Shown: positions 5,838 to 46,138 of the stretch, one piece after another
How positions within the stretch are numbered: the first letter of the stretch is position 1
Layout of the letters: each line of letters opens with the position of its first letter
Assembly (NCBI GenBank): GCA_963706595.1
Contig: OY970166.1
Coordinates: forward strand, 1,440,001 to 1,504,000
DNA length: 64,000 bases
Source: an uncultured cyanobacterium
GTDB taxonomy: Bacteria; Cyanobacteriota; Cyanobacteriia; Cyanobacteriales; Nostocaceae
Direction: 5' to 3'
Program-made: the position numbers and the translations under genes
The notes under the pieces: generated by a model
What the model was told of the DNA's origin: nothing
What the model saw: only the letters and a program-made list of their open reading frames with translations
Database searches by the model: none

Positions 5838-5992
5838 AAGTCTTTTGGTGTCAAGCTTTTTCGGTAAATTTTGTCCCTGATCCAAGCGCATACCGCTATA
5901 AACCTTTAAGTTGCACATTGAGGTATGTGGGGGAGCAGAGATGCAGGGGGAGAAGTTTCTACCTAATTTAAAAATGAGGAAAATAAAACTCT

Positions 5993-11472: not shown

Positions 11473-11517
11473 GAGATTTTTTAAATTTAAAACAGCTTAC
11501 CTTTTTACGAAATTTTC

Positions 11518-11985: not shown

Positions 11986-12061
11986 TGCTAAATTGCTTAA
12001 TTTTCTGCTTTTGTGTGATGGGTTTTAAGTACGCTGTAAATTAATACCACCAAATTTCAAG

Positions 12062-12394
12062 ATGTCTATTTCAAGCAAAGTTATGAATTCGCAAGTCAAA
12101 GTGATTCAGCCCCAAGGCATTTTTAATAGTAAAAAGGGTAATCAACTCCGCGAAGAAGTGGATGAACTGATAACATCAGATATCAAAACTATTTTGATTG
12201 ATTTTAAAGATGTTACATTTATGGATAGTTCTGGTTTTAGTGCCTTGCTGATGACGCTAAAAATAGTTCGACAAAAAAATATTAGATTGGTACTTTGTTC
12301 TATTAACCAGCAAATAAATATGATCTTTGATATGACTAACACAAATCAATTTTTTGAGGTGTTACCGGATCAGGCATCATTCGTATCTGCTTAA
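12062..12394 (+). CDS. Anti-sigma factor antagonist (STAS; RsbV/SpoIIAA-like)
   Basis: IDFKDVTFMDSSG with the phospho-acceptor Ser. Confidence 0.92.
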   Translation: MSISSKVMNSQVKVIQPQGIFNSKKGNQLREEVDELITSDIKTILIDFKDVTFMDSSGFSALLMTLKIVRQKNIRLVLCSINQQINMIFDMTNTNQFFEVLPDQASFVSA

Positions 12395-12501
12395 TACAGC
12401 ACTTCCTACTGTTATAAGGTACAAGCCTAGCGGGCAATATGCCCGCACCACAAGGGTTTTATTCTTCCAGTTTGTACCTTTCATGAACAAAATATGCTGC
12501 A
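12395..12501. repeat. ~107-bp MITE/REP-like palindromic element
   Basis: Ends TACAGCA...TGCTGCA, inner inverted AAGGTACAA...TTGTACCTT, central hairpin GCGGGCA-ATA-TGCCCGC. Confidence 0.6.
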
Positions 12502-12546
12502 TTGTTTCTGGTTTACCTACGATTTTATACTGAGGAGTTTAAGTTA

Positions 12547-13107
12547 ATGTACGGTTTAGTCAACAAAGCAATTGAAGATATGATTTGCAAATACCACGGT
12601 GAAAATACCTGGGAAAGTATCAAGCAAAAAGCTAAACTGGAAGACATAGACTTTTTTATTGGCATGGATGCTTATTCTGATGATATTACCTATCGCTTAG
12701 TTGCAGCAGCTTGTGAGGTTTTAGGCATGGAGGCAGAAGAAATACTGCAAGCATTTGGTGAATACTGGGTGACATACACCGCAGAAGAAGGCTATGGAGA
12801 ACTTTTAGATAGCGCCGGTAACTCTTTAGGGCAGTTTATGGAGAACCTTGATAATCTGCACGCACGAGTCGGCTTGAGTTTTCCCCAACTCCGTCCCCCA
12901 TCTTTTGATTGCGAACACACCAGCGAAAAGTCAATGGAACTGCACTATCAATCAACTAGGCAGGGTTTAGCACCAATGGTGATTGGTTTAATTCATGGAT
13001 TGGGAAAACGCTTTCATACAAAGGTAGATATTACCCAAATTAGTTTTCGTCAACAAGGTGCATCTCACGATATTTTTGCTGTTGAATATGACAATTCTCA
13101 AGCCTAA
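12547..13107 (+). CDS. H-NOX heme NO-binding protein
   Basis: MYGLVN N-terminus, proximal His in LDNLHARV, YxSxR motif (HYQSTR). ATG at 12547 follows GAGGAG. Confidence 0.96.
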
Positions 13108-13303
13108 CCGCTTTCGTGACTATCGGATAAATTAACGAAGTTGTGTTATTGCAAACAACAAAAAATTAAAGTTTTATCCCCATTTAACTAAAGTAAGCTA
13201 AGTACCTGTGTACAATTAATTAAACATTTTTAAAATCTGCTTTCTTGCTTTGCTAGAGCAATTTTTTAGGTGTGCTGGTGTATGCAGTTTATAATGGCTA
13301 TTT

Positions 13304-16300: not shown

Positions 16301-17191
16301 CGTGGTAGCTGGTTTACCCAAGGTACTCCCCAGTCTATCATTCCTTCTTACTCTCGTTTGCCTAAACCCCATCTCCCCACCGTTGATAGGAAGTTTGCGG
16401 AAAGCTTACCCCTAAAGATTCTGCTAGTTGAAGATATATTAGTTAATCAGAAAATTGCCCTGAAGATGCTGCATCGGTTAGGCTATCGGGCAGATGTGGC
16501 TAATGATGGATGTGAAGCCTTAGAAGCGTTGCAAAGGCAACTTTATGATGTGGTATTTATGGATATCCAGATGCCGGAAATGGATGGGTGGGAAACGACT
16601 CGTCGTGTTCGTGGGGACTTTTCCCAGGATGCTCAACCTTGGATTATTGCTATGACTGCCCATGCTCGTCCAGAAGATCGCCAAGAATGCCTGAGTATTG
16701 GGATGAATGATTTTATTAGTAAGCCGATTAGTTTGGAAGGGCTGGAAGCAGTTCTGAAACAATATGGCATTCAGAGGCATCAAGGCACAGAACCTGTTAG
16801 AGATGGGGTATTAACCTCCTCTAACCAGCAATCAGTGATTGACCACAGTGTTCTGGAAAATCTGCGTAGTATGGCAGGGAGTGAAGGCGACCAGTTAATT
16901 AGGGAACTGATCCAAGCTTATTTAGAAGATGCCCCGGTCAGAATTCAAACAATTAAAAATGCTTTTACCTCTGAAAATCGAACTGATCTCAAGAAAGCGG
17001 CTCATGCTTTGCGATCGCCCAGTGTTAGTATAGGTGCAGTCAAATTGGGTAAAATCTGTGAGACTTTGGAATATAATGCACAGAATCAATCATTAGCACA
17101 AATCGCTGATCTGGTTAATCAAATAGAGAGCGAATATAAAAATTTAATTTCAGTTATAGAAAGTTTTTATATTAATATCAGATCAGATTGA
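13304..17191 (+). CDS. Hybrid histidine kinase: HNOBA/PAS - PAS - PAS - CBCR-GAF - HisKA - HATPase - REC - REC - HPt
   Basis: FPFHLVID and LFLGSPW (HNOBA), GLWDWN PAS, DPCL...CH GAF, SHEIRTPMN H-box, GGTGLGL, MDIQMPEMDG, AHALRSPS (HPt). Confidence 0.93.
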   Translation: MTKDRVIESKQFSLNPDQFAALFPFHLVIDRDMKIVQAGGVLQRILEPILMLGSFLEEHFQINRPNCPVNFAAISQHTRSSKAGSSPSLFLLQSHHKEMQLKGEIVYLEASDHLLFLGSPWITEITDLKKLDLKLDDFPLYDSVGDYLFLLQSKNSALTDAKKLTARLTSQRAELRATASRLRTVIESLQAGVLLEDETRHVILSNQEFCDQFGIPVAPEALQGVDCQQAAQTSKQLFAEPEKFIQRVDEILGQNQIVLNEELPLQDGRIFEQDYIPILVDQKFYGHLWKYHDITQRKQAENALRLSEERLKLALDAVDEGLWDWNLVTGEVYRSPRWFTMLGYTPEELENDIKLKIRLIHPEDLSLMQERLIAHLKGETPFYEVEVRFLTKSGEWKWILDRGKLVSRDSQGRAMRMVGTHLDITERKLSEAALQQQYERVLLLKQITEEIRQSLQWEKILQTTVTEVQRILQCDRVVIFQINPDGNGKVVQEAVVPGWSVTLDQDINDPCLKAGYFDFYRQGRITVISDVETAGFQPCHLEFLRQFQVKANLVVPILVREDLWGLLIAHQCDRPRQWTQLELDLLKHLADQMGIALTQAQLLTQETHQANLLVLQNEELNLAKQTAETANMAKSNFLATMSHEIRTPMNAIIGMSGMLLDTSLTPEQLDCVETIRNSSNALLTIINDILDFSKIESGKLELEAQPFDLRLCVEEALDLLAPQAASKGIELMYLIEADVPTFITGDITRLRQILWNLMSNAVKFTKIGEVVVTITARQLVSSSGRYELQFAVRDTGIGIPRDRIHRLFKPFSQVDVSMTRRYGGTGLGLVISKRLCEIMGGRMWVDSQPNQGSTFYFTVILPVDQSAINSLTTADPELVGKRLLLAVHNTNLRKCLTLQLQSLGLDVQVGESNTTILQYLWEQKPFALAILDIDHPDLDCLDLTAKIRAIPKQKDLPLVMLSSKGKHTLEVKQIASEFTAFLHKPVRQYQLHNTLLQIVRGSWFTQGTPQSIIPSYSRLPKPHLPTVDRKFAESLPLKILLVEDILVNQKIALKMLHRLGYRADVANDGCEALEALQRQLYDVVFMDIQMPEMDGWETTRRVRGDFSQDAQPWIIAMTAHARPEDRQECLSIGMNDFISKPISLEGLEAVLKQYGIQRHQGTEPVRDGVLTSSNQQSVIDHSVLENLRSMAGSEGDQLIRELIQAYLEDAPVRIQTIKNAFTSENRTDLKKAAHALRSPSVSIGAVKLGKICETLEYNAQNQSLAQIADLVNQIESEYKNLISVIESFYINIRSD

Positions 17192-17229
17192 ATACTGATT
17201 ATATTTGTTAGGTTAGGTAATTACCAATT

Positions 17230-18405
17230 ATGCTTGAAATATCTGATGATAAAATCAAAATTTTAGTCATTGATGATGATCGAATTATCCAAATAGTTCT
17301 TAAACAAACACTTCAAGGACAGGGATATGAAGTTCTTATCGCTTCTAGTGGTGTACAAGGTATTGAGCAAGCTTATCAGCATCATCCTGCCCTGATTATT
17401 TGTGATTGGCAAATGGATGAAATGGATGGCTTAGAAGTATGCCGTATTATTAAATCTGAACCATCTTTATCAAGCACATTTTTTATTTTGCTAACAGCAC
17501 GTACAGCAGTTGAAGATAGGGTTGAAGGTTTAGATAATGGTGCAGATGATTTCTTGAGCAAACCCATTGATGTGAGTGAGCTAAAAGCACGAGTGCGAGC
17601 AGGACTCAGGTTATATCAAACTAATCAAGAGCTTCAGAGATTAGCTGAAGATTTACAAATTCAGAAACAACTTTTAGAAACGGAATTGCATGAAGCTGCT
17701 GATTATGTAACATCTATTTTACCTGAGCCAATCTCAGGATTAGTGACTATCAATCACAGGTTTTTACCTTCTCATCAATTAGGTGGTGATTGCTTTGATT
17801 ACTACTGGTTAGATAAAGAGAACTTAGTTATTTATCTTTTGGATGTTTCTGGACATGGATTAGCCGCTGCACTCCCTTCCATTTCCGTGCATAATTTGTT
17901 GCGATCGCAAACTCTCCCTCAAGCAAATTTTCATCAACCATCTGAAGTTCTCAACGCTTTGAATGAAGTTTTCCAAATGGAAAAACATAACGCCCGTTAC
18001 TTTACCATTTGGTATGGGGTTTTTAACATTGAGTCTTATCGATTAACCTATTCTACTGCTGGACATCCACCAGCTTTATTACTTTCTCAATCAACTGACT
18101 CTAGTATAGATATCAAACAGTTAATTACTCCCAGTATGCCCATCGGGGCATTTGCAGAAGGAGAATATGAAAATGCTGTATGTACAATTCAACCATCTAG
18201 TAAAATCTATGTTTTTAGCGATGGAGTTTATGAAGTTGAAATGTCTGATGGTAAACTGTGGGGATTTAATGATTTTATCAACTTATTGACTAGATGTAAT
18301 CACCATTTAATGAATTTAGACGAAATTTTAGCAGCTATTAAAATTGCTACAGCTAGTCAATCATTTACAGATGACTGCTCTTTATTAGAAATAAACTTTG
18401 GATAG
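17230..18405 (+). CDS. Response regulator with SpoIIE/PP2C phosphatase (RsbU-like)
   Basis: REC domain (DDD, CDWQM); GGDCFD, DVSGHG, SDGVYE and DDCS motifs. Confidence 0.93.
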   Translation: MLEISDDKIKILVIDDDRIIQIVLKQTLQGQGYEVLIASSGVQGIEQAYQHHPALIICDWQMDEMDGLEVCRIIKSEPSLSSTFFILLTARTAVEDRVEGLDNGADDFLSKPIDVSELKARVRAGLRLYQTNQELQRLAEDLQIQKQLLETELHEAADYVTSILPEPISGLVTINHRFLPSHQLGGDCFDYYWLDKENLVIYLLDVSGHGLAAALPSISVHNLLRSQTLPQANFHQPSEVLNALNEVFQMEKHNARYFTIWYGVFNIESYRLTYSTAGHPPALLLSQSTDSSIDIKQLITPSMPIGAFAEGEYENAVCTIQPSSKIYVFSDGVYEVEMSDGKLWGFNDFINLLTRCNHHLMNLDEILAAIKIATASQSFTDDCSLLEINFG

Positions 18406-18512
18406 GCTCAATAATGCTTTGGAAGCAGAGAATAGTTAACGCAAGTGAGATCATTGGTTGTATATTGAAAAAACCACCAATGAACTTCGTGTCCTTCTTG
18501 GTTCGTTACTCC

Positions 18513-19337
18513 ATGATAAAAAGCCCATTACGTTACCCTGGTGGTAAATCAAAAGCCATTAACCAAATAGCCGCACACATACCAGATAACTTCTCGGAAT
18601 TTCGAGAACCATTTGTAGGTGGAGGTTCCGCATTTATTTACTTAAAGCAGAAATTTCCTCACCTCCAAATCTGGATAAACGATTTAAACCGCGAATTATT
18701 TCTGTTTTGGAAATATGCGAAATCTGATTTACCGCAGCTAGTCGAAGAAATCCGCCGTGTTAAAGATAAATATACCGATGGTAAAATCCTATTTAAAGAA
18801 TTAACCACCATAGATACTCAAACATTATCTGAGTTTGAGAGAGCAGTACGCTTTTTTGTTCTCAATAGAATTACATTTTCTGGTACTGTGGAATCAGGCG
18901 GATTTTCTGAGCAAGCTTTTCAGAAACGCTTTACATACTCCTCAATAGACCGCCTAGAGAAATTAGCAGAAATTTTAACAGATGATGTCAAAATAACTAA
19001 CTTAGATTACAGTCAACTATTAGACGCAGACGGGAAAAATGTATTTATATTTTTAGACCCACCTTACTTTGCTGCGACTAAATCCAGGTTATATGGTAAA
19101 GATGGTGATTTACACACAACATTTAAGCATCAAAGATTTGCGGAATTGCTCAGAGAATGTCATCACCGTTGGTTAATAACTTACGATGATTCACCTCAAA
19201 TTAGAGAAAACTTCCCAGACTCTCATCTGTTTGAATGGGAATTGCAGTATGGTATGAATAACTATAAACAAGGTAGCGCTGCGAAAGGTAAAGAGTTATT
19301 CATCAGTAATTATATTCACATTTTAAATATGAAATGA
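18513..19337 (+). CDS. Dam/D12-class N6-adenine DNA methyltransferase (no adjacent endonuclease)
   Basis: PLRYPGGKS, EPFVGGGS and DPPY motifs. Start placed at MIKSPLRY; upstream ATGs are possible. Confidence 0.9.
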   Translation: MIKSPLRYPGGKSKAINQIAAHIPDNFSEFREPFVGGGSAFIYLKQKFPHLQIWINDLNRELFLFWKYAKSDLPQLVEEIRRVKDKYTDGKILFKELTTIDTQTLSEFERAVRFFVLNRITFSGTVESGGFSEQAFQKRFTYSSIDRLEKLAEILTDDVKITNLDYSQLLDADGKNVFIFLDPPYFAATKSRLYGKDGDLHTTFKHQRFAELLRECHHRWLITYDDSPQIRENFPDSHLFEWELQYGMNNYKQGSAAKGKELFISNYIHILNMK

Positions 19338-19361
19338 TGGTATTGTAAAATAATGAAAGCC

Positions 19362-19538
19362 GTCAAAATAGGCAGCTATGATATCTAGCTCTATCTGCCT
19401 TGCTTTCATCTCAGCAACCCGTCTATTTTCGGCAATATCAACTAAATTTAAAGATCAGTATTTCTGATTACCACCAAACAAGGCTCTAGGCAATCTTAAT
19501 TTAAGACGACCTTTTAGAGATTCAATCCCAACTTTCAT
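19362..19538 (-). pseudogene. Remnant of the N-terminal arm-binding (DUF3596-like) domain of a tyrosine integrase
   Basis: Hand translation: MKVGIESLKGRLKLRLPRALFGGNQKY*SLNLVDIAENRRVAEMKARQIELDIIAAYFD. Internal TGA at 19455-19457, no catalytic domain, next to the tRNA 3' end. Confidence 0.75.
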
Positions 19539-19660
19539 TGACTATTACAGAGACTATAAGGTTTGCAGAGCATAGTCAGAACAGCTTAAACGACAAATTC
19601 AGCCCCCGATGACTATTCATGACTAGGAGCTGAAACCCTTATATAGTAAGCTTGATTAAA

Positions 19661-19734
19661 TGGCTCAGGTCAGATTTGAACTGACGACCCCAGGCTTATG
19701 AGTCCCGTACTCTAACCAACTGAGCTACTGAGCC
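19661..19734 (-). tRNA. tRNA with CAT anticodon (probably elongator tRNA-Met), CCA not encoded
   Basis: GGCTCAGTAGCTCAGTTGGTTAGAGTACGGGACTCATAAGCCTGGGGTCGTCAGTTCAAATCTGACCTGAGCCA. 7-bp acceptor stem with G1-C72 pair (so not initiator), D arm and TTCAAAT loop. Confidence 0.95.
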
Positions 19735-19922
19735 TTACGTTTGATACTTTGTCATCATAGCATATAGGTTTTGGTATGGCTAGTATTTTGAGAGATTAAT
19801 TTTTTCAGAGGGGGATGAGGGGTTTTTTGTCACGCACTAGGCGCAGAGGCGCACCAGAGGAAGAGAAGAAGAGAGGAGTTCATCCCGCAATATGCAATTG
19901 CTGTAAATCCTTACTTAGCAAA

Positions 19923-20366
19923 CTAGGAAGGGCTATGATGATTACTTTCTAAAATCAAATTCATTGCTTGCTGAATAATCGCATCCTGATTTACCATTTT
20001 TGTTAACTCATCTGCTGCATATCTTCCTTCATAAGCTTCTAAAGCAGCCTTTCTTAAAGCTGACTCATAAGCATCTTGTAGAGTTTCTAATAACTCCGCT
20101 TCGGTGAAATAACTACCTTTAGCCTTTGGGCGTTGATTAGTACGTTGAATGTGCTTAACAGAATTAAGAATAGAAGTTTCCCAAGACCTAGTGCTACGTT
20201 TTTCTGCTGCTTGTTTAATCAAATGCAACAAAACAATAATCGCGTAACTAAAAATCTTATTCAGCTTGTCAGATTTACTCATCTCCTCTAATTCATCAAC
20301 CAATTCCAACGCCTCTGGGATTTTCCCCTCCTCCAACAATTCCCTTAAAATTAATAACTCTTCCAT
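19923..20366 (-). CDS. DUF29 family protein
   Basis: ELEEMSKSD, LLHLIK and RSWETSI motifs. Confidence 0.85.
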   Translation of the reverse strand: MEELLILRELLEEGKIPEALELVDELEEMSKSDKLNKIFSYAIIVLLHLIKQAAEKRSTRSWETSILNSVKHIQRTNQRPKAKGSYFTEAELLETLQDAYESALRKAALEAYEGRYAADELTKMVNQDAIIQQAMNLILESNHHSPS

Positions 20367-20440
20367 AGTTCTTTACTCCTCCTATTTTGAAATTCACCTT
20401 TCCTCCTCTGCGCCTCTGCGTCTCTGCGTGAACCTAACTC

Positions 20441-23329
20441 TTATTTCCTCGCTACCGCATACTGCTTTAACACCTGCTGCAAATATTGTCCAGTATAAGA
20501 ACGGGGATTTTTAGCAACTTCCTCTGGTGTCCCCACAGCAATGATTTCTCCCCCTTTATCGCCACCTTCAGGACCCAAATCAATTACCCAATCAGAACAA
20601 CGAATCACATCTAAATTGTGTTCAATCACTAAAATTGAATTACCTTTATCGACTAATCTTTGCAACACATCCAACAATTTATGGACATCATAAAAAGATA
20701 ACCCTGTGGTTGGTTCATCTATTAAATAAAGCGTCTTACCTGTCGCCCGACGAGATAATTCCGTCGCTAATTTTACCCGTTGCGCTTCACCACCAGATAA
20801 GGTAGTTGCTGGTTGTCCCAATTTGACATAACCCAAACCCACATCATATAAAGTTTGTAACCGAGTCACAGCTTTAGGAATGTTTTGGAAGAATTCTAAA
20901 CTTTCCTCAACGGTCATATTCAGAACATCAGAAATAGACTTATCTTTGTATTTCACCTGCAAAGTTTCGCGGTTATATCTCGCACCTTTGCAAACTTCAC
21001 ACTGGACATAAACATCAGGGAGAAAATTCATTTCAATCACATTTACACCCTGTCCGCTACAAGCTTCACAACGTCCACCTTTGACATTGAAAGAAAATTG
21101 TCCAGGTTTATATCCCCTGGCTTTCGCTTCCACTGTTTGGGAAAATACATCCCGAATTGCATCGAAAATACCTGTATAAGTTGCAGGATTAGAACGTGGT
21201 GTACGTCCTATGGGCGATTGGTCAATAACAATGGCTTTATCTACTGCATTTAATCCCTGAATTTCCTGTAAGTGTCTTGGTAAAGGAACTTTCTTGGTTA
21301 AATGATGTTGTAATGAGGGATAAAGTAATTCGTTAATGAGGGTAGATTTCCCAGAACCAGAAACACCAGTTACAGCGACAAGTTTACCTAAAGGAATTTC
21401 GACATCGATATTTCTTAAATTATTGCGATGAGCATTTTTAATTCCTAAGCTGCGCCCGTTTCCTTTTCTCCGTTCCTCTGGTGTAGAAATTACTCTTCTT
21501 CCAGATAAATAAGCACCTGTTAAGGAATCTTCTGCTGCTAGTAAAGTTTCTAAATCACCTTGGGAAACAATATTTCCGCCGTGGATTCCTGCACCGGGTC
21601 CAATATCAACGATATAATTGGCGGCACGGATGGTTTCTTCATCATGCTCAACGACTATTAAAGTATTACCTAAATCGCGTAATTTAGTTAAAGTTTTGAG
21701 TAACCGTCCATTATCTCGTTGATGCAAACCAATACTTGGTTCGTCTAAAACGTAAAGCACTCCAGTTAAACCAGAACCAATTTGCGTTGCTAACCGAATG
21801 CGTTGGGCTTCTCCACCAGAAAGAGTCATGGCGGGACGATCTAAAGTAAGATAATCTAAGCCAACATCTAACAAAAATTGTAGTCTAGCTTTAATTTCTC
21901 TTAAGACTAAATCGGCAATTTGAATTTGGCGATCGCTCAATTCTAACAAATCTATTCTTTCCCGACAATCCCGAATCGAAACTTCAGTTAAATCTTTAAT
22001 TCCATATTGTCCCAATCGTACCGCTAAAGCCTCTGGTTTTAACCGTTTCCCCCCACAAACTTCACAAGGTTGATCAACCAAATATTGCTCTAACTTCTGC
22101 TTAACTAACTCCGTCCCACCTTCATATTGACGTTGCAAAATCGGAATCACACCCTTAAAACTCTGAGTCCTCCGTGCCTCTGCGGTTCGTTCCTCCTTCT
22201 CTCCATACATAACAGTGTGCTGCTGTTCTACTGTTAGCTGATTCCACTTAGCTTGTAACTCAAACCCAGTAGTCTGTCCCACACTATAAAGTAATTCCAA
22301 ATAATAAGAATTATCTTTTTCTGACCAAGGCGCGATCGCCGCGTAAATTGGTGCGTCGGGGTCTGGTACAATCAAATCAGGCGTAAATGTCTTTAAAGTG
22401 CCGATACCGTGACAGTGGGGACAAGCACCATAAGGCGAGTTAAAGGAAAACAGGCGCGGCGATAACTCTTCCATCACCGCCCCGTGAACCGGACAAGCAA
22501 AGTTTTCTGAAAATACTAATTCCTCTTCTGTATCTTCCCCATTCTCAGAAGTCAAGCTGACAAGAATGGTAGCAATCCCACCAGACTGTTTTAAGCACGT
22601 AGACAGAGAATCAACCAAACGCTCTTGAATACCAGCTTTTTTCACCAAGCGGTCAATAACAACTTCGATAGTATGGGTAATATTTTTATCTAATTCAATC
22701 GAGTCTGACAGTTCGCGGACTTCTCCATCCACACGCACCCGCACAAAACCCTGAGAAGCGAGACTTGATATCAGCTTGCGGTGAGTTCCTTTTTTACCTC
22801 TGACAACAGGCGCAAGAATTTGGAATTTAGTTTTGTCTGGTAAATCGGAGATGCGATCGCACATCTCATCGATGGTCTGGGGTGCAATAGAGCGATCGCA
22901 TATCGGACAATGGGGTTCACCAGCGCGACCAAATAACAGTCGCAAATAATCGTAAATTTCCGTCACCGTCCCCACCGTGGAACGAGGATTATGGGAGGTA
23001 GACTTTTGATCGATGGAAATGGCGGGACTTAAGCCTTCAATGGCTTCCACATCCGGTTTATCTAATTGACCTAAAAATTGCCGCGCGTAGGCGCTGAGGG
23101 ACTCTACATAACGCCTTTGACCTTCTGCGAAAATGGTATCAAAGGCTAAAGAAGATTTACCCGAACCAGAAACCCCAGTAAATACAATCAGGCGATCGCG
23201 CGGTAATTCCAAGTCAATATTCTTCAGATTATGCTGCCTAGCACCCCGAATCCGAATGGTATTCTGGCTGTTGTGGTGAGAATGAGGAAGATGTCCATTT
23301 AAGGATGGGGCTAGCTTTTGATCTGACAT
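20441..23329 (-). CDS. uvrA: Excinuclease ABC subunit A
   Basis: GARQHNLKN, two GVSGSGKS Walker A motifs, zinc fingers, LSGGEAQR twice. ATG at 23329; the ORF-track extension upstream is repeat-derived. Confidence 0.98.
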
Positions 23330-35319: not shown

Positions 35320-36966
35320 ATGTTCCTCACCCAAACTGTTCCTCGTCAAAGAGAAATTATCGAAGTCGTCCTTCGCAATGGCTGGGACTATATGCGAAGG
35401 CTGCTGACTGGTGGTAAAGCTGATGAACCCCAGCTACCCACACCTGCGGTTTTAAAGAATATTCTTGTGGATTTGGGGCCAGTGTATGTCAAGCTGGGTC
35501 AGCTACTTTCTACCCGTCCCGACTTACTCAACGCCGCCTACATTGAAGAACTTTCCACTCTCCAAGACGAAGTACCGCCAGTTCCTTGGACAGAAGTAGA
35601 AGTATTCATCCGTAAGCACCTCAAACGCCCCCTGGAAGAAACCTTCCGTGTCATTAATCCTGTACCAGTAGCGGCGGGATCAATCGCCCAGACTCATCGC
35701 GCCACATTGGTAGATGGTCGAGAAGTAGCTTTGAAAGTGCAACGTCCGGGAATTGCGCTCACTGTTGCTCAAGATATTGCTTTAATTCAAGGAATTGCTG
35801 ATTTAGTCGCCCGCACAGATTTTGGGCAAACCTACGAAATTAAATCCGTCGCGGCAGAATTTACCAAAGCTTTAGAAGACGAGTTAAATTTTACCCTAGA
35901 AGCTGGTTTTACCGACGAGCTGCGAGGTAATTTATCTCGTAGTCACTGGTTTGATCCCACACAACTGGTAGTTGCAGAAATTTTTTGGGACATCACCACC
36001 GAAAAGTTATTAGTCATGGAATGGCTGGATGGAGTCCCGTTGCTGTCAGCGAATTTAGTCAGCATTGAAAACGGTAAAACTGCTCATACACAACGTCAAG
36101 AAATCACGACTTTGTTATTTCGAGCTTTTTTCCAGCAATTATATATTGATGGTTTCTTTCATGCTGACCCCCATCCTGGAAATTTATTTTATCTCGCAGA
36201 TGGTCGCATTGCCCTTTTAGATTGTGGCATGGTGGGTAGGCTTGATCCCCGCACTCAGCAGATATTAACAGAAATGCTCTTAGCAATCATTGATTTAGAT
36301 GCGGGGCGATGCGCGCAATTAACTTTACAGTTAGCCGATTCTTCTCAGCCGGTGATTTTGTCACGGTTAGAAAATGATTATGATCGGATGTTGCGGAAGT
36401 ATCATAATGTCAACTTGGGTGAAATGAATTTCAGTCAGGTAATTTATGAAATTTTGCAAGTCGCCCGTAACAATAAAATTCGCTTACCCAGCAATATGGG
36501 TTTATATGCTAAAACCCTGGCAAATTTAGAGGGGGTAGCCCGTGCATTCAACCCAGAAGTTAACTTATTTGACGAAGTACAGCCATTAATTACAGACTTG
36601 TTTCGGCGGCAATTATTAGGCGATAATCCAGTGCGATCGCTATTAAGAACAGCCTTAGATATTAAGAGTTTATCATTACAATTTCCCCGGCAAATTGAAC
36701 TGTTATTAGATCGAGTTACATCCGAAACCTTACAGTGGAATCTCTCCCTGCGTGGTTTAGATGGTATGCGGCGCACTCTAGATGATGCCGCTAACAGATT
36801 ATCCTTTAGCATCTTAGTAGGTTCTCTAATTATGGGAGCAGCCATTATTTCCACCAAAACCCAAACCACTCAACTTTCCTTTTTGAGTAGTGTCTTGTTT
36901 GCTGCGGCTAGTTTATTAGGTTTGTGGCTAGTTTTTAGTATTTTGCGGTCTGGGCGTTTAAAGTAA
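35320..36966 (+). CDS. ABC1/AarF/UbiB family atypical kinase
   Basis: LGPVYVKLGQ, VALKVQRP, HADPHPGN, LLDCGMVG. Confidence 0.95.
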   Translation: MFLTQTVPRQREIIEVVLRNGWDYMRRLLTGGKADEPQLPTPAVLKNILVDLGPVYVKLGQLLSTRPDLLNAAYIEELSTLQDEVPPVPWTEVEVFIRKHLKRPLEETFRVINPVPVAAGSIAQTHRATLVDGREVALKVQRPGIALTVAQDIALIQGIADLVARTDFGQTYEIKSVAAEFTKALEDELNFTLEAGFTDELRGNLSRSHWFDPTQLVVAEIFWDITTEKLLVMEWLDGVPLLSANLVSIENGKTAHTQRQEITTLLFRAFFQQLYIDGFFHADPHPGNLFYLADGRIALLDCGMVGRLDPRTQQILTEMLLAIIDLDAGRCAQLTLQLADSSQPVILSRLENDYDRMLRKYHNVNLGEMNFSQVIYEILQVARNNKIRLPSNMGLYAKTLANLEGVARAFNPEVNLFDEVQPLITDLFRRQLLGDNPVRSLLRTALDIKSLSLQFPRQIELLLDRVTSETLQWNLSLRGLDGMRRTLDDAANRLSFSILVGSLIMGAAIISTKTQTTQLSFLSSVLFAAASLLGLWLVFSILRSGRLK

Positions 36967-37051
36967 CCCTTGTGTTTGCCAAAGCAATCATCAATACAGA
37001 TAAATAATTGAAGTGCTTATCTGTATTTATCTGTAGTTTCAATATAAAATT

Positions 37052-38032
37052 ATGTCAATTATCACCGTTGAAAATCTGAGTAAATTTTACCCAGTAGCTG
37101 TTAAAGAACCAGGGCTAAAAGGCACACTCACCCACTTTTTTCGGCGTACCTACCGCCCCATTAAAGCAGTACAAGATGTTTCCTTTGAAATAGCACCTGG
37201 TGAAGTGGTGGGTTTTTTGGGGCCAAATGGTGCAGGTAAAACCACCACCCTAAAAATGCTTACAGGGTTAATTCATCCTTCGGAAGGTAAAGTCAGAGTA
37301 GCGGGATACGAACCATTTCTGCGCCAAGAGGCATTTCTGCAAAAAATCACCTTGGTAATGGGGCAGAAACAGCAGTTACTGTGGGACTTACCAGCACTCG
37401 ATTCTTTGAAAATTAATGCTGCTGTTTACAACATCTCTAATAAAGAATTTCAAAAGCGAGTCGGGGAATTAACAGAGATGCTGACCTTAGAAGGTAAGCT
37501 GACCCAACCAGTGCGGAAATTGTCATTAGGTGAACGGATGAAAGCAGAACTGTTAGCAGCACTTTTGCACCATCCTCATGTCTTATTTCTGGATGAACCG
37601 ACATTAGGACTCGATGTAAATGCACAGGTAGCGGTGCGCGATTTTTTGCGCGAGTACAATCAGCGTTATCAAGCCACTGTATTATTAACAAGTCATTACA
37701 TGGCTGATATTACTGCTTTATGTGAGCGTGTGCTGTTGATTCACCAAGGAAAGTTGATGTATGACGGTAGTCTAGATGGACTGCTGAAAAATTTCGCCCC
37801 CTACCGGGAAATTCATATTGAGTTAGCCGAACCGCTACCCAGAGAAAAACTCATGTTTTATGGTGATGTCAAACTTTTAGAGGGGCGTGCAGTCAGCTTT
37901 ATGGTACAGCGAGAAGCGCTAACTCGCACAGTATCCCAGATTTTGAATGATTTAGAAGTCATCGACTTAACAGTGACTGAGCCGGCAATAGAAGAAGTGA
38001 TTGGCAGGGTTTTTCATGCAGGTGTAGTGTAA
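37052..38032 (+). CDS. ABC transporter ATP-binding protein
   Basis: GPNGAGKTT, LSLGERM, LDEPT, TSH. Confidence 0.95.
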   Translation: MSIITVENLSKFYPVAVKEPGLKGTLTHFFRRTYRPIKAVQDVSFEIAPGEVVGFLGPNGAGKTTTLKMLTGLIHPSEGKVRVAGYEPFLRQEAFLQKITLVMGQKQQLLWDLPALDSLKINAAVYNISNKEFQKRVGELTEMLTLEGKLTQPVRKLSLGERMKAELLAALLHHPHVLFLDEPTLGLDVNAQVAVRDFLREYNQRYQATVLLTSHYMADITALCERVLLIHQGKLMYDGSLDGLLKNFAPYREIHIELAEPLPREKLMFYGDVKLLEGRAVSFMVQREALTRTVSQILNDLEVIDLTVTEPAIEEVIGRVFHAGVV

Positions 38033-38207
38033 CTCATATCTTGCACCTGGCGACTGGAAGTCACGGCTACACAGGCGAAACCCACCTACGTGGGTTCAAA
38101 ACCCTTGTTTTTCCGTTAGTCCGCGTAGGCGGACTTTGTTTGTATAGCCGCGTTCGCCCTTGGCGTTGCGTTAGCAATATTCTAATCGCCAGGGCTTGGT
38201 GCTGAGT
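38032..38207. mobile_element. Nested palindromic MITE/REPIN-like element
   Basis: Outer ACTCATATCTTGCACC / GGTGC[6-nt deletion]TGAGT, inner CCTGGCGA...TCGCCAGG, hairpins AACCCAC-CTAC-GTGGGTT and AGTCCGC-GTAG-GCGGACT. Confidence 0.65.
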
Positions 38208-38246
38208 AGTACCTTATAGTTAAAACTAGGGAATTTTAAAATTTCT

Positions 38247-39035
38247 GTGAAAAAAATTATTAGAAAAATCTTGACATTTCTTTCTGTTTACTACGCCTAT
38301 ATGCTTGAGTATCGGGCAGAATTGATATTATGGGTTTTGGCTGGGGCTTTGCCAATTATCCTCATGGGTGTATGGATACAGGCGGCACAAGGTGGACAGT
38401 TTGGTTTAACACCTGTGGATTTTGCCCGTTACTTTATTACGGTTTTCTTTGTTAGGCAACTTACTGTTGTCTGGGTAATTTGGGATTTTGAAAAGGAAGT
38501 AGTAGAGGGTAAGCTGTCATTCCGATTATTACAACCCATAGACCCAGTATGGCATCACGTGGCGGGTCATATTTCTGAAAGAGTTGCTCGTATACCGTTT
38601 ATATTGCTATTAGTTTTCTTGTTTTTCATCCTCTATCCCCAGGCTATTTGGTTGCCGAATTTGGGGCAGTTTTTGCTGTTTGGGTTAGCGGTGACGTTAG
38701 CTTTTGTCTTACGGTTTATAATTCAGTACACCTTTGGTCTGTTCGCCTTTTGGACAGAACGTGCTAGCGCTTTAGAAACTTTTTGGCTGTTATTTTATTT
38801 ATTTTTGTCAGGGTTAATTGCGCCTTTAGATGTGTTTCCTGAAACTGTGCGAACAATAGTCATGTTTACGCCTTTTCCTTATTTGATTAATTTCCCAGTT
38901 AGTCTTTTAGTGGGGCTACCTGTGGATGTAGTGCGGGGATTTTTATCACTTGTGGGTTGGATATTGTTGTTTTTGGGTGCAAATCGTCTGCTGTGGCGTG
39001 CGGGATTAAAACGATATTCAGGTATGGGTGCTTGA
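38247..39035 (+). CDS. ABC-2 type transporter permease
   Basis: 6 TM segments; GKLSFRLLQP, SGLIAPL, TPFPY. Confidence 0.9.
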   Translation: MKKIIRKILTFLSVYYAYMLEYRAELILWVLAGALPIILMGVWIQAAQGGQFGLTPVDFARYFITVFFVRQLTVVWVIWDFEKEVVEGKLSFRLLQPIDPVWHHVAGHISERVARIPFILLLVFLFFILYPQAIWLPNLGQFLLFGLAVTLAFVLRFIIQYTFGLFAFWTERASALETFWLLFYLFLSGLIAPLDVFPETVRTIVMFTPFPYLINFPVSLLVGLPVDVVRGFLSLVGWILLFLGANRLLWRAGLKRYSGMGA

Positions 39036-39038
39036 AAG

Positions 39039-39079
39039 AACCTCACCCCCAGCCCCTCTCCTTGCTAAGGAGAGGGGAG
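39039..39079. repeat. REP-like hairpin family (CCTCACCCCC...CCCCTCTCCTT-n-AAGGAGAGGGG)
   Basis: Near-identical copy at about 61835-61875; inverted degenerate copy at about 51817-51858. Confidence 0.8.
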
Positions 39080-39170
39080 ATTAGATTTTTTTTCGTAACT
39101 CATTTAAAGTTAGAATTGATCTAAAATATTGTTATCAATGGGTTAAATTTTGGCAGGTTGAAAAAATTAG

Positions 39171-39632
39171 ATGACAGCACCTCAACCAAAAGTCTCAACA
39201 AACTCCCAACTTTATGACGAAGATTTTTATCTCTGGCTAGAGACGACGGCTGAACAACTCAAAGCAGGTAAATTTGCTGAAGTTGATTTAGCCAATCTCA
39301 TTGAAGAAATTGAATGTATGGGGAGAAGTGAAAAAAGATCATTAGAAAGTAATTTAGTTATTTTATTAATGCACTTGCTGAAATATAAATATCAGCCAGA
39401 CAAACGCACCAATAGTTGGCTTTCTACTATATTTGAGCATCGGCGGAGATTAAATAAAAACTTGCAAGATAGTCCAAGTTTAAAAAACTACTTTTCTGAA
39501 ACATTTGCAGAGTGTTATCAAGATGCACGTCAACAAGCAGCCATAGAAACTGGATTATCACTTGATACCTTTCCTGTAGAATCTCCCTTCACCACCGATG
39601 AATCTTTGCATCAAGACTTTTTACCCGAATAA
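39171..39632 (+). CDS. DUF29 family protein
   Basis: LYDEDFYLW, LIEEIECMGRSE, HLLKY, SPSLKNY. Confidence 0.92.
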   Translation: MTAPQPKVSTNSQLYDEDFYLWLETTAEQLKAGKFAEVDLANLIEEIECMGRSEKRSLESNLVILLMHLLKYKYQPDKRTNSWLSTIFEHRRRLNKNLQDSPSLKNYFSETFAECYQDARQQAAIETGLSLDTFPVESPFTTDESLHQDFLPE

Positions 39633-39815
39633 CTCCCTACTCTTACTCTGGTGCGCCTTTTTTGCATAGTAGGGTGGGTTAGGCGCACGATATGACATGA
39701 TAAAAATGAATAGGATATTACGCCGTAACCCACCATTTACACTTCAAAACAGGTAAATTTTCTGAAGTTGATTTAGCCAACTAAATTCATATTTTCCATT
39801 ATAAAAGTCAAGAAA

Positions 39816-40781
39816 TTAGTATGTAATCTTCATATAAATTGGTTGCTTGTCAAATTTTAATTGTTCAATCTGTAATAGTTTTGGTTCAATGTGCTTATCC
39901 AATAAAGGATTTCGATAATCTAAAGTTTTTTCTTCCTTTTCTAACTGTTGTTTTTGATAATTAATACTAGATTTGTGATAGACAATACCTATAATAGCTA
40001 TTGTAATAATTAAAACTATAGCGAAGACTTTTTTTGTAAAAAATAGTTGGGGAAAACTTTTAATAAAACATGAAAAATCATTTTTTTTTAACTGGTCTGC
40101 GGGTACTCCCTGCTGTACATTATCCCATGCTTCATCGTCTGCATTAATTAGGCTTGATAAGCCTCGCCAAACTTTATATTTTTGTAAGTGCTGCTTTTTA
40201 CTTACTCCTGTTACCACCACCAATAAAGAATCTTTATTTGGTAAAGAGCCTAACGTTAAAAGTTCATCTGCTAACTTTGGTTTTTTGTCAAGATTTCCAA
40301 ATTTCTGGTAAAGGTGTTCTTTTGGCACTTCTTTTTGTTTTTTTTGCCCTCCTTCTGAATGTTGATTTAAAAACTCTTTAAGTTCATTTTTTTCTACAAA
40401 AAAACCGCCTTGATCCTCTTTTGTTACAATTGCATTTATTGTGCTACTTAACTTGTCTGACAGTGCTTCAATTGTGAGATTCAAGAAAAATTTTTCCTCA
40501 GAACTGTCACCTACACATACTATAGAATTACGAATTTTACGATTTCGGTTATCTGTGCGTTGAGATTCTAGACCATTTACTAGGAGAAGTAACTTATTCT
40601 CATCCTTAATTCTACATAAAACTATTGCAAATGCATTATTATCTATTAAATGATTAACTTCTTCTGGAATAGGAGGATCATTAGGATCATTATAAGAGTT
40701 ACCATCCTTCTCATAACATTTTAGCCAATAATAATCTTGAGACAATCCACGGCTTTGAACGTAAATATCTATCTTACGCAT
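39816..40781 (-). CDS. Hypothetical membrane-anchored protein; last gene of the GTPase operon
   Basis: Globular N-terminus (YVQSRG..DYYW, RTDNRNRKIRNS) and one TM helix near the C-terminus (VFAIVLIITIAIIGIVY). Starts 2 nt after the upstream stop. Confidence 0.75.
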   Translation of the reverse strand: MRKIDIYVQSRGLSQDYYWLKCYEKDGNSYNDPNDPPIPEEVNHLIDNNAFAIVLCRIKDENKLLLLVNGLESQRTDNRNRKIRNSIVCVGDSSEEKFFLNLTIEALSDKLSSTINAIVTKEDQGGFFVEKNELKEFLNQHSEGGQKKQKEVPKEHLYQKFGNLDKKPKLADELLTLGSLPNKDSLLVVVTGVSKKQHLQKYKVWRGLSSLINADDEAWDNVQQGVPADQLKKNDFSCFIKSFPQLFFTKKVFAIVLIITIAIIGIVYHKSSINYQKQQLEKEEKTLDYRNPLLDKHIEPKLLQIEQLKFDKQPIYMKITY

Positions 40782-40783
40782 AA

Positions 40784-41851
40784 CTATCTTTTATTTATTT
40801 TAAGTAAATTAGCACCCTGCAAAACTGCAAAAGCACCAGTATTTTTACAGCCATTGCTGAAATCCAATATTGCTTCTTTCAATGCATTATCTCTACCAAA
40901 ATAATTTAGTATGGAATTGATAATTGGCACACGCCGCTTTTCAATATGTAACCTTAGTAAAAAGCGCAAAAGGTATCTTAGTGGTTGTTCATTATCTCTA
41001 GGCTGATATACGTCTTTATAATCTTGCTTGCAGAAGCAAAAAATAGGTTTATGATCCTTGTCATATTTAATGCTAGAAAAAATTACACTACCTAAAGTTT
41101 GCACAGGAGTAACAACTACAGCGATATTAGGAAGTAAAGCATCAGCACTAAAAAACTCAAGCAAATTTGCATATTTTTCTCTAACACATCTTAGCAAATT
41201 GTTGGCATCTTTATCATTTTGCAGATAACTTTCACATTTGACAGGTACAAATATTACTAGCCTTGGGGAATCTAAATTTTGGTAAGCTTGTTTAAATAAA
41301 TTTCTTAATGTATCTGGTATGTTAAAGTATTCATGCCATTCACCATTAGTTTCCATCAAAGCTGGTGTATCGATTGCAATAATAACAGCTGCTGATTCTT
41401 TGAGAAAAGTTTTAACTTTGTTTATGTTCTCCACATTCTTTTGTGTTCCGTCTATGTAAGAACCTGGATAATCTTGAAACTCAAGCCTTAAGGAAGGAGA
41501 TACGCCAGTTTTTCCTAAATCAAAAAAGAAAGAACGCGGTTCAGGTGTACCTGTAACTTCATCTGTAAATTTAATGGTACTACCAGTAAATCTTTTTAAC
41601 TCTGCTAACCGTTGAGTAATAATTGCCTGATTTACTTCATTCTTTACATCATCAGGCATTGTAAGTTGGAGATTTGTCTGTCCAATAATTTTATCAAACT
41701 GGTCATACATAGAAGCTAAAAGGCTAGTTTTTCCTACACCTGAAGCCCCTAACATAGTTATTTTCAATGTTTGATTAGGTTCTTTATTTGCTGTAAATAA
41801 TTTGGCGAACATAGTTTTTAAACGTTGAGAAATTTGTTTGAACCTTAGCAT
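40784..41851 (-). CDS. TRAFAC-class P-loop GTPase
   Basis: G1 GASGVGKTS, G2 GT, G3 DYPG, G4-like VKCE. ATG at 41851 is 1 nt from the upstream stop; 41812 and 41884 are alternatives. Confidence 0.8.
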   Translation of the reverse strand: MLRFKQISQRLKTMFAKLFTANKEPNQTLKITMLGASGVGKTSLLASMYDQFDKIIGQTNLQLTMPDDVKNEVNQAIITQRLAELKRFTGSTIKFTDEVTGTPEPRSFFFDLGKTGVSPSLRLEFQDYPGSYIDGTQKNVENINKVKTFLKESAAVIIAIDTPALMETNGEWHEYFNIPDTLRNLFKQAYQNLDSPRLVIFVPVKCESYLQNDKDANNLLRCVREKYANLLEFFSADALLPNIAVVVTPVQTLGSVIFSSIKYDKDHKPIFCFCKQDYKDVYQPRDNEQPLRYLLRFLLRLHIEKRRVPIINSILNYFGRDNALKEAILDFSNGCKNTGAFAVLQGANLLKINKR

Positions 41852-41852
41852 A

Positions 41853-44052
41853 CTATTTGAGAAATAACATATTATTGGATTCATTTATTGAAAGTGTTTT
41901 TTCTATTAAAGTTAACCATTTTTCTTTGATTTGAGAATTTTCCACTAAAAATTTAAATTCTTCTGGCCGTACTTGTGTCCGAACTTCAAATAAGAAAATT
42001 CGCCATTCTTTCTTTGATTTTTCTGCCCGAAGCAGTCTATCTACAAATTCTTCTACCATTGCAAATGCAGCTTGACTGGGTTCTGGAAGCAAATCTTGCA
42101 ATGCTTGCTCACATTTATAAACTGCTTCTAGATAAATAACTTCTAATGTATCGAAAACATCCTGATCTGATGGATTTCTGGGAATGTGTACTGCTAAATT
42201 TGGAGTTAAACCATCAAGATGTTTGCGGATTCTATGCTGAACTAAGCCTCTGTATGAAATTTGAAAATCTGAGATAACTTGAAATCCTTCTTTAAGGCTA
42301 CTTAAGTTACTAGGTATTTGGTTGGCTACGGATTTAAGAAAATTAGAACCTCTTTCTCTTGTCAAACCTCCAAGAAAACACTTCTCAACCAAAACTTGTG
42401 TAACTTGAGCTTTTATTCCTTCTATAGTATGTTTTAATCCATCATCTAGAGATAGAAAGCGATAAGATAGCCTTGTGCGAATTTCATGCAAAAAGTCACT
42501 GTATGCAGATGAATAAGAACCACACTGATTAGCTTTTCTGTGAATTTCTTGAAGATTGGGAATACCAGGATTATTTCGACAGTCTTTAAAAATAGCTTCT
42601 AATGATTGCTTAAAATTTTCATCCCCTTCATCACGTCGGTTGCTTAATTTTTCTAATAGATCCTCTTTTAAACTATTTGTGATTGCATCCCAAAAATCAT
42701 CAAACAAATCATTAAACAAATTAAAAAATATAGTTTCGTCTGAGGTTATCAACATTTTATTAAAAATGCCTCGTACTTTGCACAATGCTTCTTTCACCGT
42801 ATTCTGAAGCTCGGTAATATTCTTTTGACAATCAGCAGCATAGTTTTGATCTAAAGACTCAATATGATTAGTCAGATAGTTGAGAATTATATCAAAAACT
42901 CTGTTAGCATCATCTGAATTGGAGCAATCAGCTATTTCACACTGGACAACTTTTATGGTATCAATAGTTGACTTGAGCTTTTCACAGCCTTCCAGGTTAT
43001 CAGTCCTAACACTATGATTGAGAACCATGAAAGACCTGTCTGACAGATTATTCATAGCTTTTGCTGCTTTATCATAAAAGTCTGTATCTAATTTATCCCA
43101 TTGATATCTTAATGAATCTGGTCTGCGGATGAATAAAACTACATCAACTTGATTTCCTAAAGTATTTAAAATCAGGCTCATCTCCCAATTTGGAGTCCCC
43201 TAAACCTGGTAAATCTACTAAAGATATTTGTCCGACATCTGAATTTTTAAAAGGACATAATATTTTGACTTCTCGTACTGCTAGATGTTCAAAAGTAAGT
43301 AAATTATCATAGTGATCACGTTTTTGAATGACATATTTGGAAATTTCTTCTTTTTTAATGATTAATCTACGGGGAAGTCCCGGCTGAAGTAAATGTTGGT
43401 ATTGATTTATATTAGAATGATAATCATCTTTGAGATGTTTGTACATTCTTTCATTGGTAGCACTAGCTCTTTCATTGGTAGCATTAGCATCGATTACTTG
43501 AGTTTGAGGAAATTTTTGCAGAGCAAAATCATTCAGGTTTAGGGGTTTATTTTCCAAACCTAGCTCTTTATAGTAAGGATAAATTACTTCTTCAAGAAAG
43601 GAGTTTTCTGAATGTATGATAACTTCAGTTACAATTTCTCCTTGGTGATTTTCAATAGTGCTGCGAACAGCAGTACAAGCGCCTCCTTTTAATGCTGGAA
43701 TTTCATTATCAGTGAGTCCACTTAAACTTTTAAGTAGTGTACTTTTTCCCTGTCCCATGAATCCAATCACTCCAATATTAAGAGTGTGGCGAGAAATCCG
43801 TTCTCGAAGAGTGCCAATTTTTTGACATTCGTCATCAATTTTCTTGTGAATTTCTGTAAAATCTAGTTCTTGTAAAGATTGTTTAACATTGCAGTCCTCA
43901 ACTCTTGTTAGTAGTTCATTGCGGTAAGCTTCTAAATTTTTAAGTTCTGAGGAAAGAGATTTTAAATTAGCCTCAGTATCGGCAATTTTGTTTACCAAAG
44001 GACGACGCTTTTCAATAATGCTGGCTATTTTCCTAGTTCTATCTGTGTTCAT
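41853..44052 (-). pseudogene. Dynamin-like GTPase split by a frameshift near 43175-43181 (pseudogene, sequencing error or genuine split gene)
   Basis: ORF 43144-44052: coiled coil, G1 GFMGQGKST, G2 CTAV, G3 DLPGLGD. ORF 41853-43181 continues the same G-domain (LGNQVDVVLFIR, FMVLN) and a long helical region. Confidence 0.75.
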
Positions 44053-44286
44053 TGGATGATGTATAAATATTACTTCAGCACTGATCTATAGTTAGGGAAA
44101 AGCTAAAAGAGGCAAATTTTAAAATAACATCCTAAAAATAGACCTTTTATCTCCCTAAAGCTATTGTTCCCACATAAATTCAAAAATGAACACTTCGTGA
44201 TGATGTAATTTATGGATAAAAAAAATGGACACTGATAAATCGGTGTTTATCTGTGTCCATCTGTGGTTGATTAAATTACCCGAAAA

Positions 44287-45906
44287 TTATTCCCATTCTA
44301 TGGTTCCAGGTGGCTTGGAGGTAATATCATAAACCACACGGTTAACACCTTTCACTTCATTAACAATGCGGTTAGAAATGTCTTCTAATATATCGTAAGG
44401 TATGCGCGCCCAGTCAGCAGTCATACCATCTTCACTGGTAACTATGCGGAGGACAATGGGGTAAGCATAGGTACGTTTATCACCCATTACGCCAACACTG
44501 CGAATTGGTAATAATACGGCAAAGGCTTGCCAAAAATCGTGATATAAACCACGTTTGTTAATTTCTTGGCGAACAATTAAATCAGCATCACGGAGAATAT
44601 TTAACCGTTCGGGGGTGACTTCCCCTAAAATACGAATTGCTAAACCAGGGCCGGGGAAGGGTTGGCGTTGGACAATTTCTTCTGGTAAACCAATGGAACG
44701 CCCCACTTTGCGGACTTCATCTTTAAAGAGTTTCCGCAATGGTTCTACAAGTTTAAACCGCAAGTCTTTCGGTAAACCACCAACGTTATGATGACTCTTA
44801 ATTTTTACTGCTACCCGTTCGCCAGTTTTGGGGTCTACGTTGGTATCAGCAGACTCGATGACATCGGGATATAGTGTACCTTGGGCTAAATAGTCAAAGT
44901 GTCCCAGGCGTTTGGATGTTTCTTCAAATACTTGGATAAATTCATGTCCGATGCGGCGGCGTTTTTCTTCGGGGTCGGTGATCCCCTCTATCATGTTGAG
45001 AAAGCGATCGCGCGCCATGACATATTCTACAGGAATATGAAACTGTTCTTTAAATAGTTTCAATAACCGTTCTGGCTCTAATTTACGCATAAAGCCTTGG
45101 TCAATAAACACACAGGTCAATTGCTCCCCAATAGCTTTATACAACAAAAACGCCAAGGTGGAAGAATCAACTCCCCCAGATAAGGCTAACAGTACCCGCT
45201 TATCACCAACTCTGGCGCGAATTTCCCGAATTGCTTCTTCAACAAATGCCTCTGTTGTCCAAGTAGGTTCACAATCGCAGATATGATAAACAAAGTTGCG
45301 AATTAATGGTAAACCACCCAGAGAATGTACTACTTCGGGATGGAACTGGACACCATATAGTTTCTTTTCGTGGTCAGCGATCGCCGCACAGGGAGTATTA
45401 TCTGTATGGGCTAACAATTCAAACCCTGGTGGCATTTTGGTGACTGAATCTCCGTGACTCATCCACATGGTAGTCCCATCTTCGACGTTAGTTAATAAGT
45501 CGGTGGGGTCATCTATATATAATGATGCTTTGCCATACTCACCTCGATCAGCTTTGGCTACTTCCCCATCAAGTTGGTTAACCATCAACTGCATTCCATA
45601 GCAAACACCCAGGATGGGAATGCCTAAATTCCAGATTTCTGGATCACAATGGGGAGCGTGATCATCATAAACTGAACTTGGTCCACCGGAAAGAATGATG
45701 CCTTTGGGATTTAGTTTTCGTAAATGTTCAGGTGTCGTGCGATAAGAGAGAACTTCGGAGTATACTTGAGTTTCTCGTATCCGACGCGCAATTAGTTCGG
45801 AATATTGCGAGCCGAAGTCTAGAATTACAATGATTTGACGATCTAGCCGCCCCAAATTTTCCGTTTGAGGCGCTTGTTCGGTTTGTAGAGTCACCGCTGT
45901 ATTCAT
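44287..45906 (-). CDS. guaA: GMP synthase (glutamine-hydrolysing)
   Basis: [42 protein letters not shown]. Confidence 0.98.
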
Positions 45907-46138
45907 GATGGGGGGAGTTGTAGATGTAAGGTAGATGTTCGTTCTTTGGTCTAAACTAGATCCCACTTATCGCCTGGTTGAGCTGGTAAATGGTTGGTTG
46001 AGTGGATAGCCCACAAACGCGAGGTTGAACGCGCTTGCTAGCCTATGCTGATGGCATGGTATTAAAAAGAATGATTTAACTGAGAATGACTACGGAAAAA
46101 AATATGTATTTGGATTATTTATGATTATTCATAATAAA

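Follow-up and report, generated by a model that had tools for sequence, protein, structure and literature searches.

A stretch of 64,000 nucleotides from an uncultured cyanobacterium of the Nostocaceae (GenBank contig OY970166.1, positions 1,440,001 to 1,504,000; hereafter the window) contains three adjacent genes that encode a dynamin-like GTPase (gene 1), a second, smaller GTPase (gene 2) and a membrane-anchored protein (gene 3). We found that these genes form a real operon in a variable slot after guaA, and that the same cassette recurs as a mobile, accessory and mostly cyanobacterial unit. The reading that fits best is a variant of the predicted DO-GTPase/GAP1 conflict systems in which a dynamin joins the other two components, and the architecture is apparently undescribed. 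On balance we favor the notion that it is a mobile, membrane-acting conflict module, derived from DO-GTPase/GAP1 systems, in which the dynamin serves as mechanical effector. An immune role is likely but unproven. Computational analysis established the folds or families of the parts, the gene order, the single-pass anchor of gene 3, the patchy distribution and the faster divergence of gene 3.

Gene order, distribution and insertion site

We found that the gene order is conserved. Gene 2 was sought in 401 genomes of the phylum and was present in 24. At all 26 other places inspected for neighbors, gene 1 lies directly upstream of gene 2; gene 3 was detected downstream by BLAST at 24 of them, and a similar, alignable gene for a transmembrane (TM) protein stands at the remaining two. 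Among the best 80 of 221 loci in GTDB, which overlap with the 26 places and include related loci that are not independent, gene 1 was found in 68 and gene 3 in 74. Seven loci lack gene 1 although at least 3 kb is available for it, and four lack gene 3 although 1.5 kb is available. In loci of Okeania, Dapis and Trichodesmium, long spacers separate the cassette genes, and gene 1 is often beyond the fetched flank. The original prediction had treated the three genes as one operon, and this is borne out: all three occur in fixed order in 64/80 loci. They are accessory, gene 2 being found in none of ten congeners.

The cassette is also found in unrelated settings. Complete copies occur on a Nostoc plasmid and, among actinobacteria, in Nonomuraea and on a plasmid of Streptomyces; genes 1 and 2 also have matches at similar spacing on an Aulosira plasmid. 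No copy was found in phages. Variation is greatest in gene 3, whose median identity across 51 complete copies is 40%, compared to 54% for each of the other two genes.

The operon in the window is tightly packed and AT-rich, as had been noted from the sequence by eye. On the minus strand, 1 nt separates the gene 1 stop (41853) from the gene 2 ATG (41851), and 2 nt separate the gene 2 stop (40784) from the gene 3 ATG (40781). The GC content of the cassette is 32.7%, compared to 41.3% for the genome, and is equally low in 0.45% of 5,566 genome windows of the same size. The reported lack of HIP1 sites holds for 36640-45004; alone this is a weak sign, because 5.8% of equal-sized genome windows also have none.

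The cassette lies in a strain-specific, low-GC insertion (39745..44219) between guaA and a DUF29 gene. Similarity to congener DNA is lost at approximately 44220, about 67 nt past the guaA stop, and is regained at approximately 39744, and the insert is therefore about 4.5 kb long. guaA (44287..45966, minus strand) was named from its sequence, not from a family search. The DUF29 gene on the left border (39171..39632, plus strand; PF01724, E 4.5e-56) is at the same site in several congeners. guaA is a hotspot for genomic islands in other bacteria. The proposal that its 3' end served as integration site here holds in that the slot varies among congeners, but there is no integrase open reading frame within the insert and no duplicate of the guaA end at the window locus. 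The left edge of the insert (39739-39780) is a 42-nt copy of part of the DUF29 gene, 90% identical, and is perhaps a recombination scar.

Other congeners use the slot for different genes. Across the ten congeners it holds a HicB pair (3), a gene with helix-turn-helix (HTH), NACHT and NCAB1 parts (2), the Mokosh gene MkoA (1, E 5e-129) or other or rearranged DNA (3); one further congener has the HTH-NACHT-NCAB1 gene beside DUF29 on a broken contig. The slot of some congeners also holds metabolic cargo, and it is empty in one of two genomes of the same family. At one locus (L029 of genome G010, 216-7035), two copies of a 450-nt guaA 3' end enclose about 6 kb of cargo, a methyltransferase among it, and MkoA comes after the second copy.

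The three proteins

Gene 1 (41853..44052, minus strand) encodes a protein of about 733 amino acids if read through, with an N-terminal helical hairpin, a G domain and a long helical trunk. The motifs GFMGQGKST and DLPG are present. Its homologues are single proteins of about 720-790 amino acids. One intact homologue matches Pfam Dynamin_N at 29.2 bits (cut-off 27), and its AF2 model (pLDDT 86, from a 22-row alignment) has the Nostoc bacterial dynamin-like protein BDLP (2j69) as top Foldseek match (E 6e-13, 12% identity), followed by SynDLP, IniA, the Campylobacter pair and mitofusin. Global TM-scores are low (0.2-0.3), probably because the arms are hinged. Judged by this model, gene 1 is a dynamin of the BDLP fold. 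The protein has no TM helix: none reaches TM strength, and the highest KD19 value is below 1.4 in all 22 aligned rows. A 21-nt tandem duplication (43447-43488, 95% identical) adds seven residues to a loop of the G domain and was not seen in 20 aligned homologues.

The original prediction of a dynamin of about 730 amino acids thus stands for fold and motifs, but not for a single open reading frame. In the window, gene 1 consists of two overlapping frames of 302 and 442 amino acids (43144-44052 and 41853-43181), broken near 43175 (43165..43185, minus strand), just after the G3 (DLPG) region. The break is probably a sequencing or assembly error. In a second record of the same DNA (4,602 bases, broken in many places), gene 1 is interrupted at this codon too, though the tail differs, and the two disagreeing records could both derive from one in-frame sequence holding a GGWCC motif, through different losses of one or two bases. 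Moreover, 3/113 conserved genes tested in the same assembly are also frameshifted, one beside HIP1 and one beside GGWCC, so pseudogene calls from this genome need caution. These genes lie on contig C1 of this genome near 485570, 2464827 and 2925396, and one resembles threonine synthase. HIP1 and GGWCC motifs are methylated in cyanobacteria.

It could be that the dynamin of the copy in the window is genuinely disrupted, which would make this copy a pseudogene in a family that functions elsewhere. The frameshift is present in the assembly, gene 1 is likewise split in 5 of the 68 other loci (at differing positions), and no near-identical intact protein was found, the best full-length matches being 64-65% identical. 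Public sequencing runs have no coverage of the break site. Against a pseudogene, genes 2 and 3 are intact and the lesion is a single one, in addition to the discordant records and the similar breaks described above. We consider a real break rather unlikely, and the copy in this organism is quite probably intact. This question stands apart from the functional readings of the cassette.

Gene 2 (40784..41851, minus strand) is intact and encodes a 355-amino-acid TRAFAC GTPase resembling DO-GTPase2. The original prediction of a distinct GTPase of this size was correct (G1 GASGVGKTS, G3 DYPG, G4 VKCE), and the protein can now be placed, by a marginal match to PF19993 (27.5 bits; cut-off 27), in the DO-GTPase family. 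We found 586 homologues, and PF19993 is annotated on most of the 120 that were listed; G1 is intact, and G4 reads V[KR]CE in 110 of these 120. The residue after Walker B is Ser in the window (DYPGS), and among the listed homologues it is Gly in 63 and Glu in 33, with the motif not found in seven. Gene 2 has no helical trunk and no match to the Leo profiles of PADLOC.

Gene 3 (39816..40781, minus strand) encodes a 321-amino-acid GAP1-like protein. Residues 1-215 are globular, with a longin-like part and a small alpha/beta part, and are followed by a linker, a TM helix and a short tail. The single TM helix is predicted at residues 246-264 (39990..40046, minus strand; KD19 2.41), with 57 amino acids after it. 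A C-terminal hydrophobic helix is present in 30/35 aligned gene 3 proteins and in 95/113 scorable representatives. Lys and Arg are more frequent before the helix than after it in 57 proteins, less frequent in 10 and equal in 28; the globular domain is probably cytoplasmic. These results agree with the earlier description of an unrecognized globular domain with one C-terminal TM helix, and of a module linked to the membrane.

The resemblance of gene 3 to GAP1 proteins came from structure. Gene 3 has no match in Pfam or NCBIfam. No Pfam GAP1 family matched any of 35 members, and a comparison by hhalign was also negative. The family comprises 590 clusters at 50% identity. Residues 1-215 of one homologue (P0006) align (TM 0.49-0.58) with 7 of 10 listed clusters in which 11-40% of the members bear GAP1 families (GAP1-N/M), a share too low for the clusters to be named after them. 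The model of gene 3 itself (AF2, pLDDT 92.8) is weakly longin-like, and its residues 1-150 align best with longin and uDENN domains. Beyond the 215-residue domain there is only the linker, the TM helix and the tail (median 58 amino acids across the family). In one 515-amino-acid protein (P0133) the gene 3 domain is matched twice, which points to a tandem duplication.

Relation to known systems

We compared the cassette with the DO-GTPase/GAP1 systems (Kaur et al. 2020, PMC7159879; PF19993, PF20012-14). Both have a GTPase of the DO-GTPase2 family directly upstream of a partner, which has the GAP1 fold in those systems and is GAP1-like in the cassette. We propose that the cassette derives from these systems because gene 2 is a DO-GTPase that precedes a GAP1-like gene, the arrangement that Kaur et al. 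defined. Also shared are membrane proximity through a C-terminal TM helix, mobility, patchiness and variable add-ons. In contrast to those systems, the cassette has a single DO-GTPase, with no zinc ribbons in its alignment, and its GAP1-like protein is short and leaves no room for GAP1-C. The Glu after Walker B, conserved according to Kaur et al., is absent from gene 2 of the window and present in 33/120 listed homologues. The insert has no GASH gene (N1 type) or FNIII-repeat gene (N2 type), and none was found by sequence among the recurrent-neighbor clusters of the 80 loci, which were partly scanned with Pfam. Because these features are missing, the cassette is a variant of the DO-GTPase/GAP1 systems and not a member. 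It also adds a dynamin upstream and is mainly cyanobacterial. The described systems are nearly absent from cyanobacteria, according to Kaur et al., and in line with this we found canonical GAP1-N2 in 2/301 and GAP1-N1 in 1/301 genomes of the phylum.

We found no description of the three-gene architecture and no phage-protection experiment in a literature search that largely left out subscription journals. The word dynamin is absent from the main texts of Kaur 2020 (PMC7159879) and Kaur 2021 (PMC8195603) and from two supplements of the former; its neighborhood supplement was outside this check and may bear on novelty. No PADLOC system matches the cassette beyond weak P-loop matches. The claim that this is not a named system therefore stands as far as the architecture is concerned, but the cassette is related to the GTPase-centric systems of Kaur et al.

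The cassette also resembles dynamin systems. As in Eleos/LeoABC and B. subtilis DynA (10.1101/2022.05.11.491447), a dynamin-like GTPase is encoded in a mobile operon together with another P-loop GTPase. Eleos has two consecutive dynamin-like proteins, whereas the second GTPase of the cassette is a small, trunkless DO-GTPase accompanied by a TM partner. We rejected identity with Eleos: gene 2 has no Leo match, and LeoA and LeoBC matches to gene 1 are weak. The LeoBC profile of PADLOC matches 16 of 22 gene 1 rows (best E 2e-13), over only an N-terminal/P-loop stretch in the rows shown.

Jilly et al. 2018 (PMC5827413) describe a cyanobacterial dynamin clade, HSR1, with a downstream GTP-binding protein. 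Gene 1 shares the BDLP fold with their clades, Nostoc BDLP (2j69) and SynDLP (7zw6). However, it is 12-14% identical to the solved proteins, and the GKS/TxLINALL motif reported for those clades is absent from it. Membership in HSR1 was rejected on one of six listed members, Anabaena sp. 90, whose plasmid pANA01 has no match to the gene 1 profile (E<=10, whole plasmid) and whose HSR1-clade locus is a tandem dynamin pair.

Two plasmids carry other arrays. In pANA01, 10833-22183 holds on one strand an Hsp70 gene, two DO-GTPase-like genes, others, a C39 peptidase gene and the tandem dynamin pair, another association of DO-GTPase and dynamin. A Stanieria plasmid (5989-13895) encodes a dynamin 35% identical to a gene 1 homologue, followed by a DO-GTPase-like protein and proteins of 992 and 473 amino acids; we regard this as a sister cassette whose third gene differs.

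Some cassettes are extended. AAA_35 (STAND-like), sometimes with HEPN_Swt1, is fused to the dynamin in 13/120 listed homologues and in 2/80 loci, and a vWA gene lies downstream of the cassette in 12/80 loci. Loci L079, L080, L146 and L166 have the order AAA_35 gene, AAA_35(-HEPN)-dynamin fusion, GTPase, anchor, (AAA_35-)vWA gene; the first AAA_35 protein has a winged-helix N-terminus where scored. By analogy, this subtype recalls the grammar of ternary systems and the nSTAND2 two-gene counter-invader system (PMC8195603): it has a pair of AAA_35 STAND-like genes, and the second of them is joined to HEPN, to the dynamin or to both, with the dynamin at the C-terminal (effector) position. The AAA_35 form is not in this window, and it resembles nSTAND2 in arrangement. 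The extended subtype is the best candidate for an effector-bearing form.

Function and significance

We suggest the following mechanism. Anchored in the membrane, gene 3 would keep its GAP1-like domain on the inner side of the cell, and its longin-like part would bind gene 2 as a platform, GTPase-activating protein (GAP) or guanine nucleotide exchange factor (GEF). A trigger, either a protein of the phage or damage to the membrane in the course of infection, may flip the nucleotide state of gene 2. Genes 2 and 3 would then recruit the soluble dynamin, which would polymerize on the membrane and use GTP to tether, seal or constrict it. Lysis might be delayed, or the infected cell isolated or killed, limiting spread along the filament or colony. 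We infer these interactions among the products, as well as the trigger and the outcome.

We read the cassette as a conflict module because its order is conserved, it is accessory and mobile, gene 3 is hypervariable, its slot is shared with defense genes, and STAND, HEPN and vWA add-ons occur. Phage protection by dynamins is reported for Eleos and DynA (10.1101/2022.05.11.491447). Several observations weigh against this reading. In a sample of 36 loci, chosen as roughly one from each lineage and scored on two genes per side (141 flanking proteins, no control set), specific defense genes were neighbors in only about 4-6, after generic kinase, Uma2-like and TnpB-like matches were discounted. Those seen were two type II restriction-modification loci, a helicase-methylase cluster, PDC-M24 and possibly MzaA and PDC-S44. 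For Eleos, a defense association of 60% is reported, by a wider criterion than ours. Furthermore, the neighbors are mostly housekeeping genes, and the core cassette encodes neither a nuclease nor any other toxic domain.

The last two observations fit better with accessory membrane repair or remodeling under general envelope or thylakoid stress, which would use the same mechanics of switch, anchor and dynamin with no phage-specific role; the closest structures, BDLP, SynDLP and IniA, are also consistent with it. Such a function would not account well for the very patchy, horizontally moved distribution, the hypervariable gene 3, the add-ons, or a slot common to Mokosh, NACHT and toxin-antitoxin genes, and we consider it unlikely, if still a serious candidate. 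A lineage-specific developmental or polarity module, in which an MglA/MglB-like switch steers the dynamin to septa or division sites, seems improbable. Longin and roadblock domains do pair with small GTPases in MglAB, many of the named hosts are, by their habit, filamentous or dividers by multiple fission, and Nostoc BDLP was observed at septa, according to PMC5827413. However, ten of ten congeners with the same body plan have no cassette, and the cassette is found at unrelated loci and on plasmids.

Longin/uDENN regulators (FLCN-FNIP, Lst4, TRAPP) and MglAB act as platforms, GAPs or GEFs for small GTPases, and residues 1-150 of gene 3 are, in the model, structurally nearest to them, weakly. 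It is possible, though we hold it doubtful, that the conflict module is a bacterial counterpart of the eukaryotic logic of small GTPase, longin/DENN-type regulator and dynamin, with a membrane-anchored longin-like GAP or GEF switching the GTPase that aims the dynamin, put to immune use.

How bacterial dynamins are switched on and targeted to a membrane site is largely open. The DO-GTPase/GAP1 systems stand as predictions, and the literature searched held no experiment on them. The cassette would be their minimal form, with three genes and a mechanical output of a known type. Intact natural copies are numerous, and some belong to culturable hosts, making dynamin activation and DO-GTPase/GAP1 function testable in vitro and in vivo. 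Should a longin-like fold be confirmed for the GAP1-like partner, it would inform the question of prokaryotic origins for GTPase-regulated membrane remodeling. If the cassette does follow the eukaryotic logic, GAP1 proteins generally would be prokaryotic longin/DENN-like regulators of GTPases.

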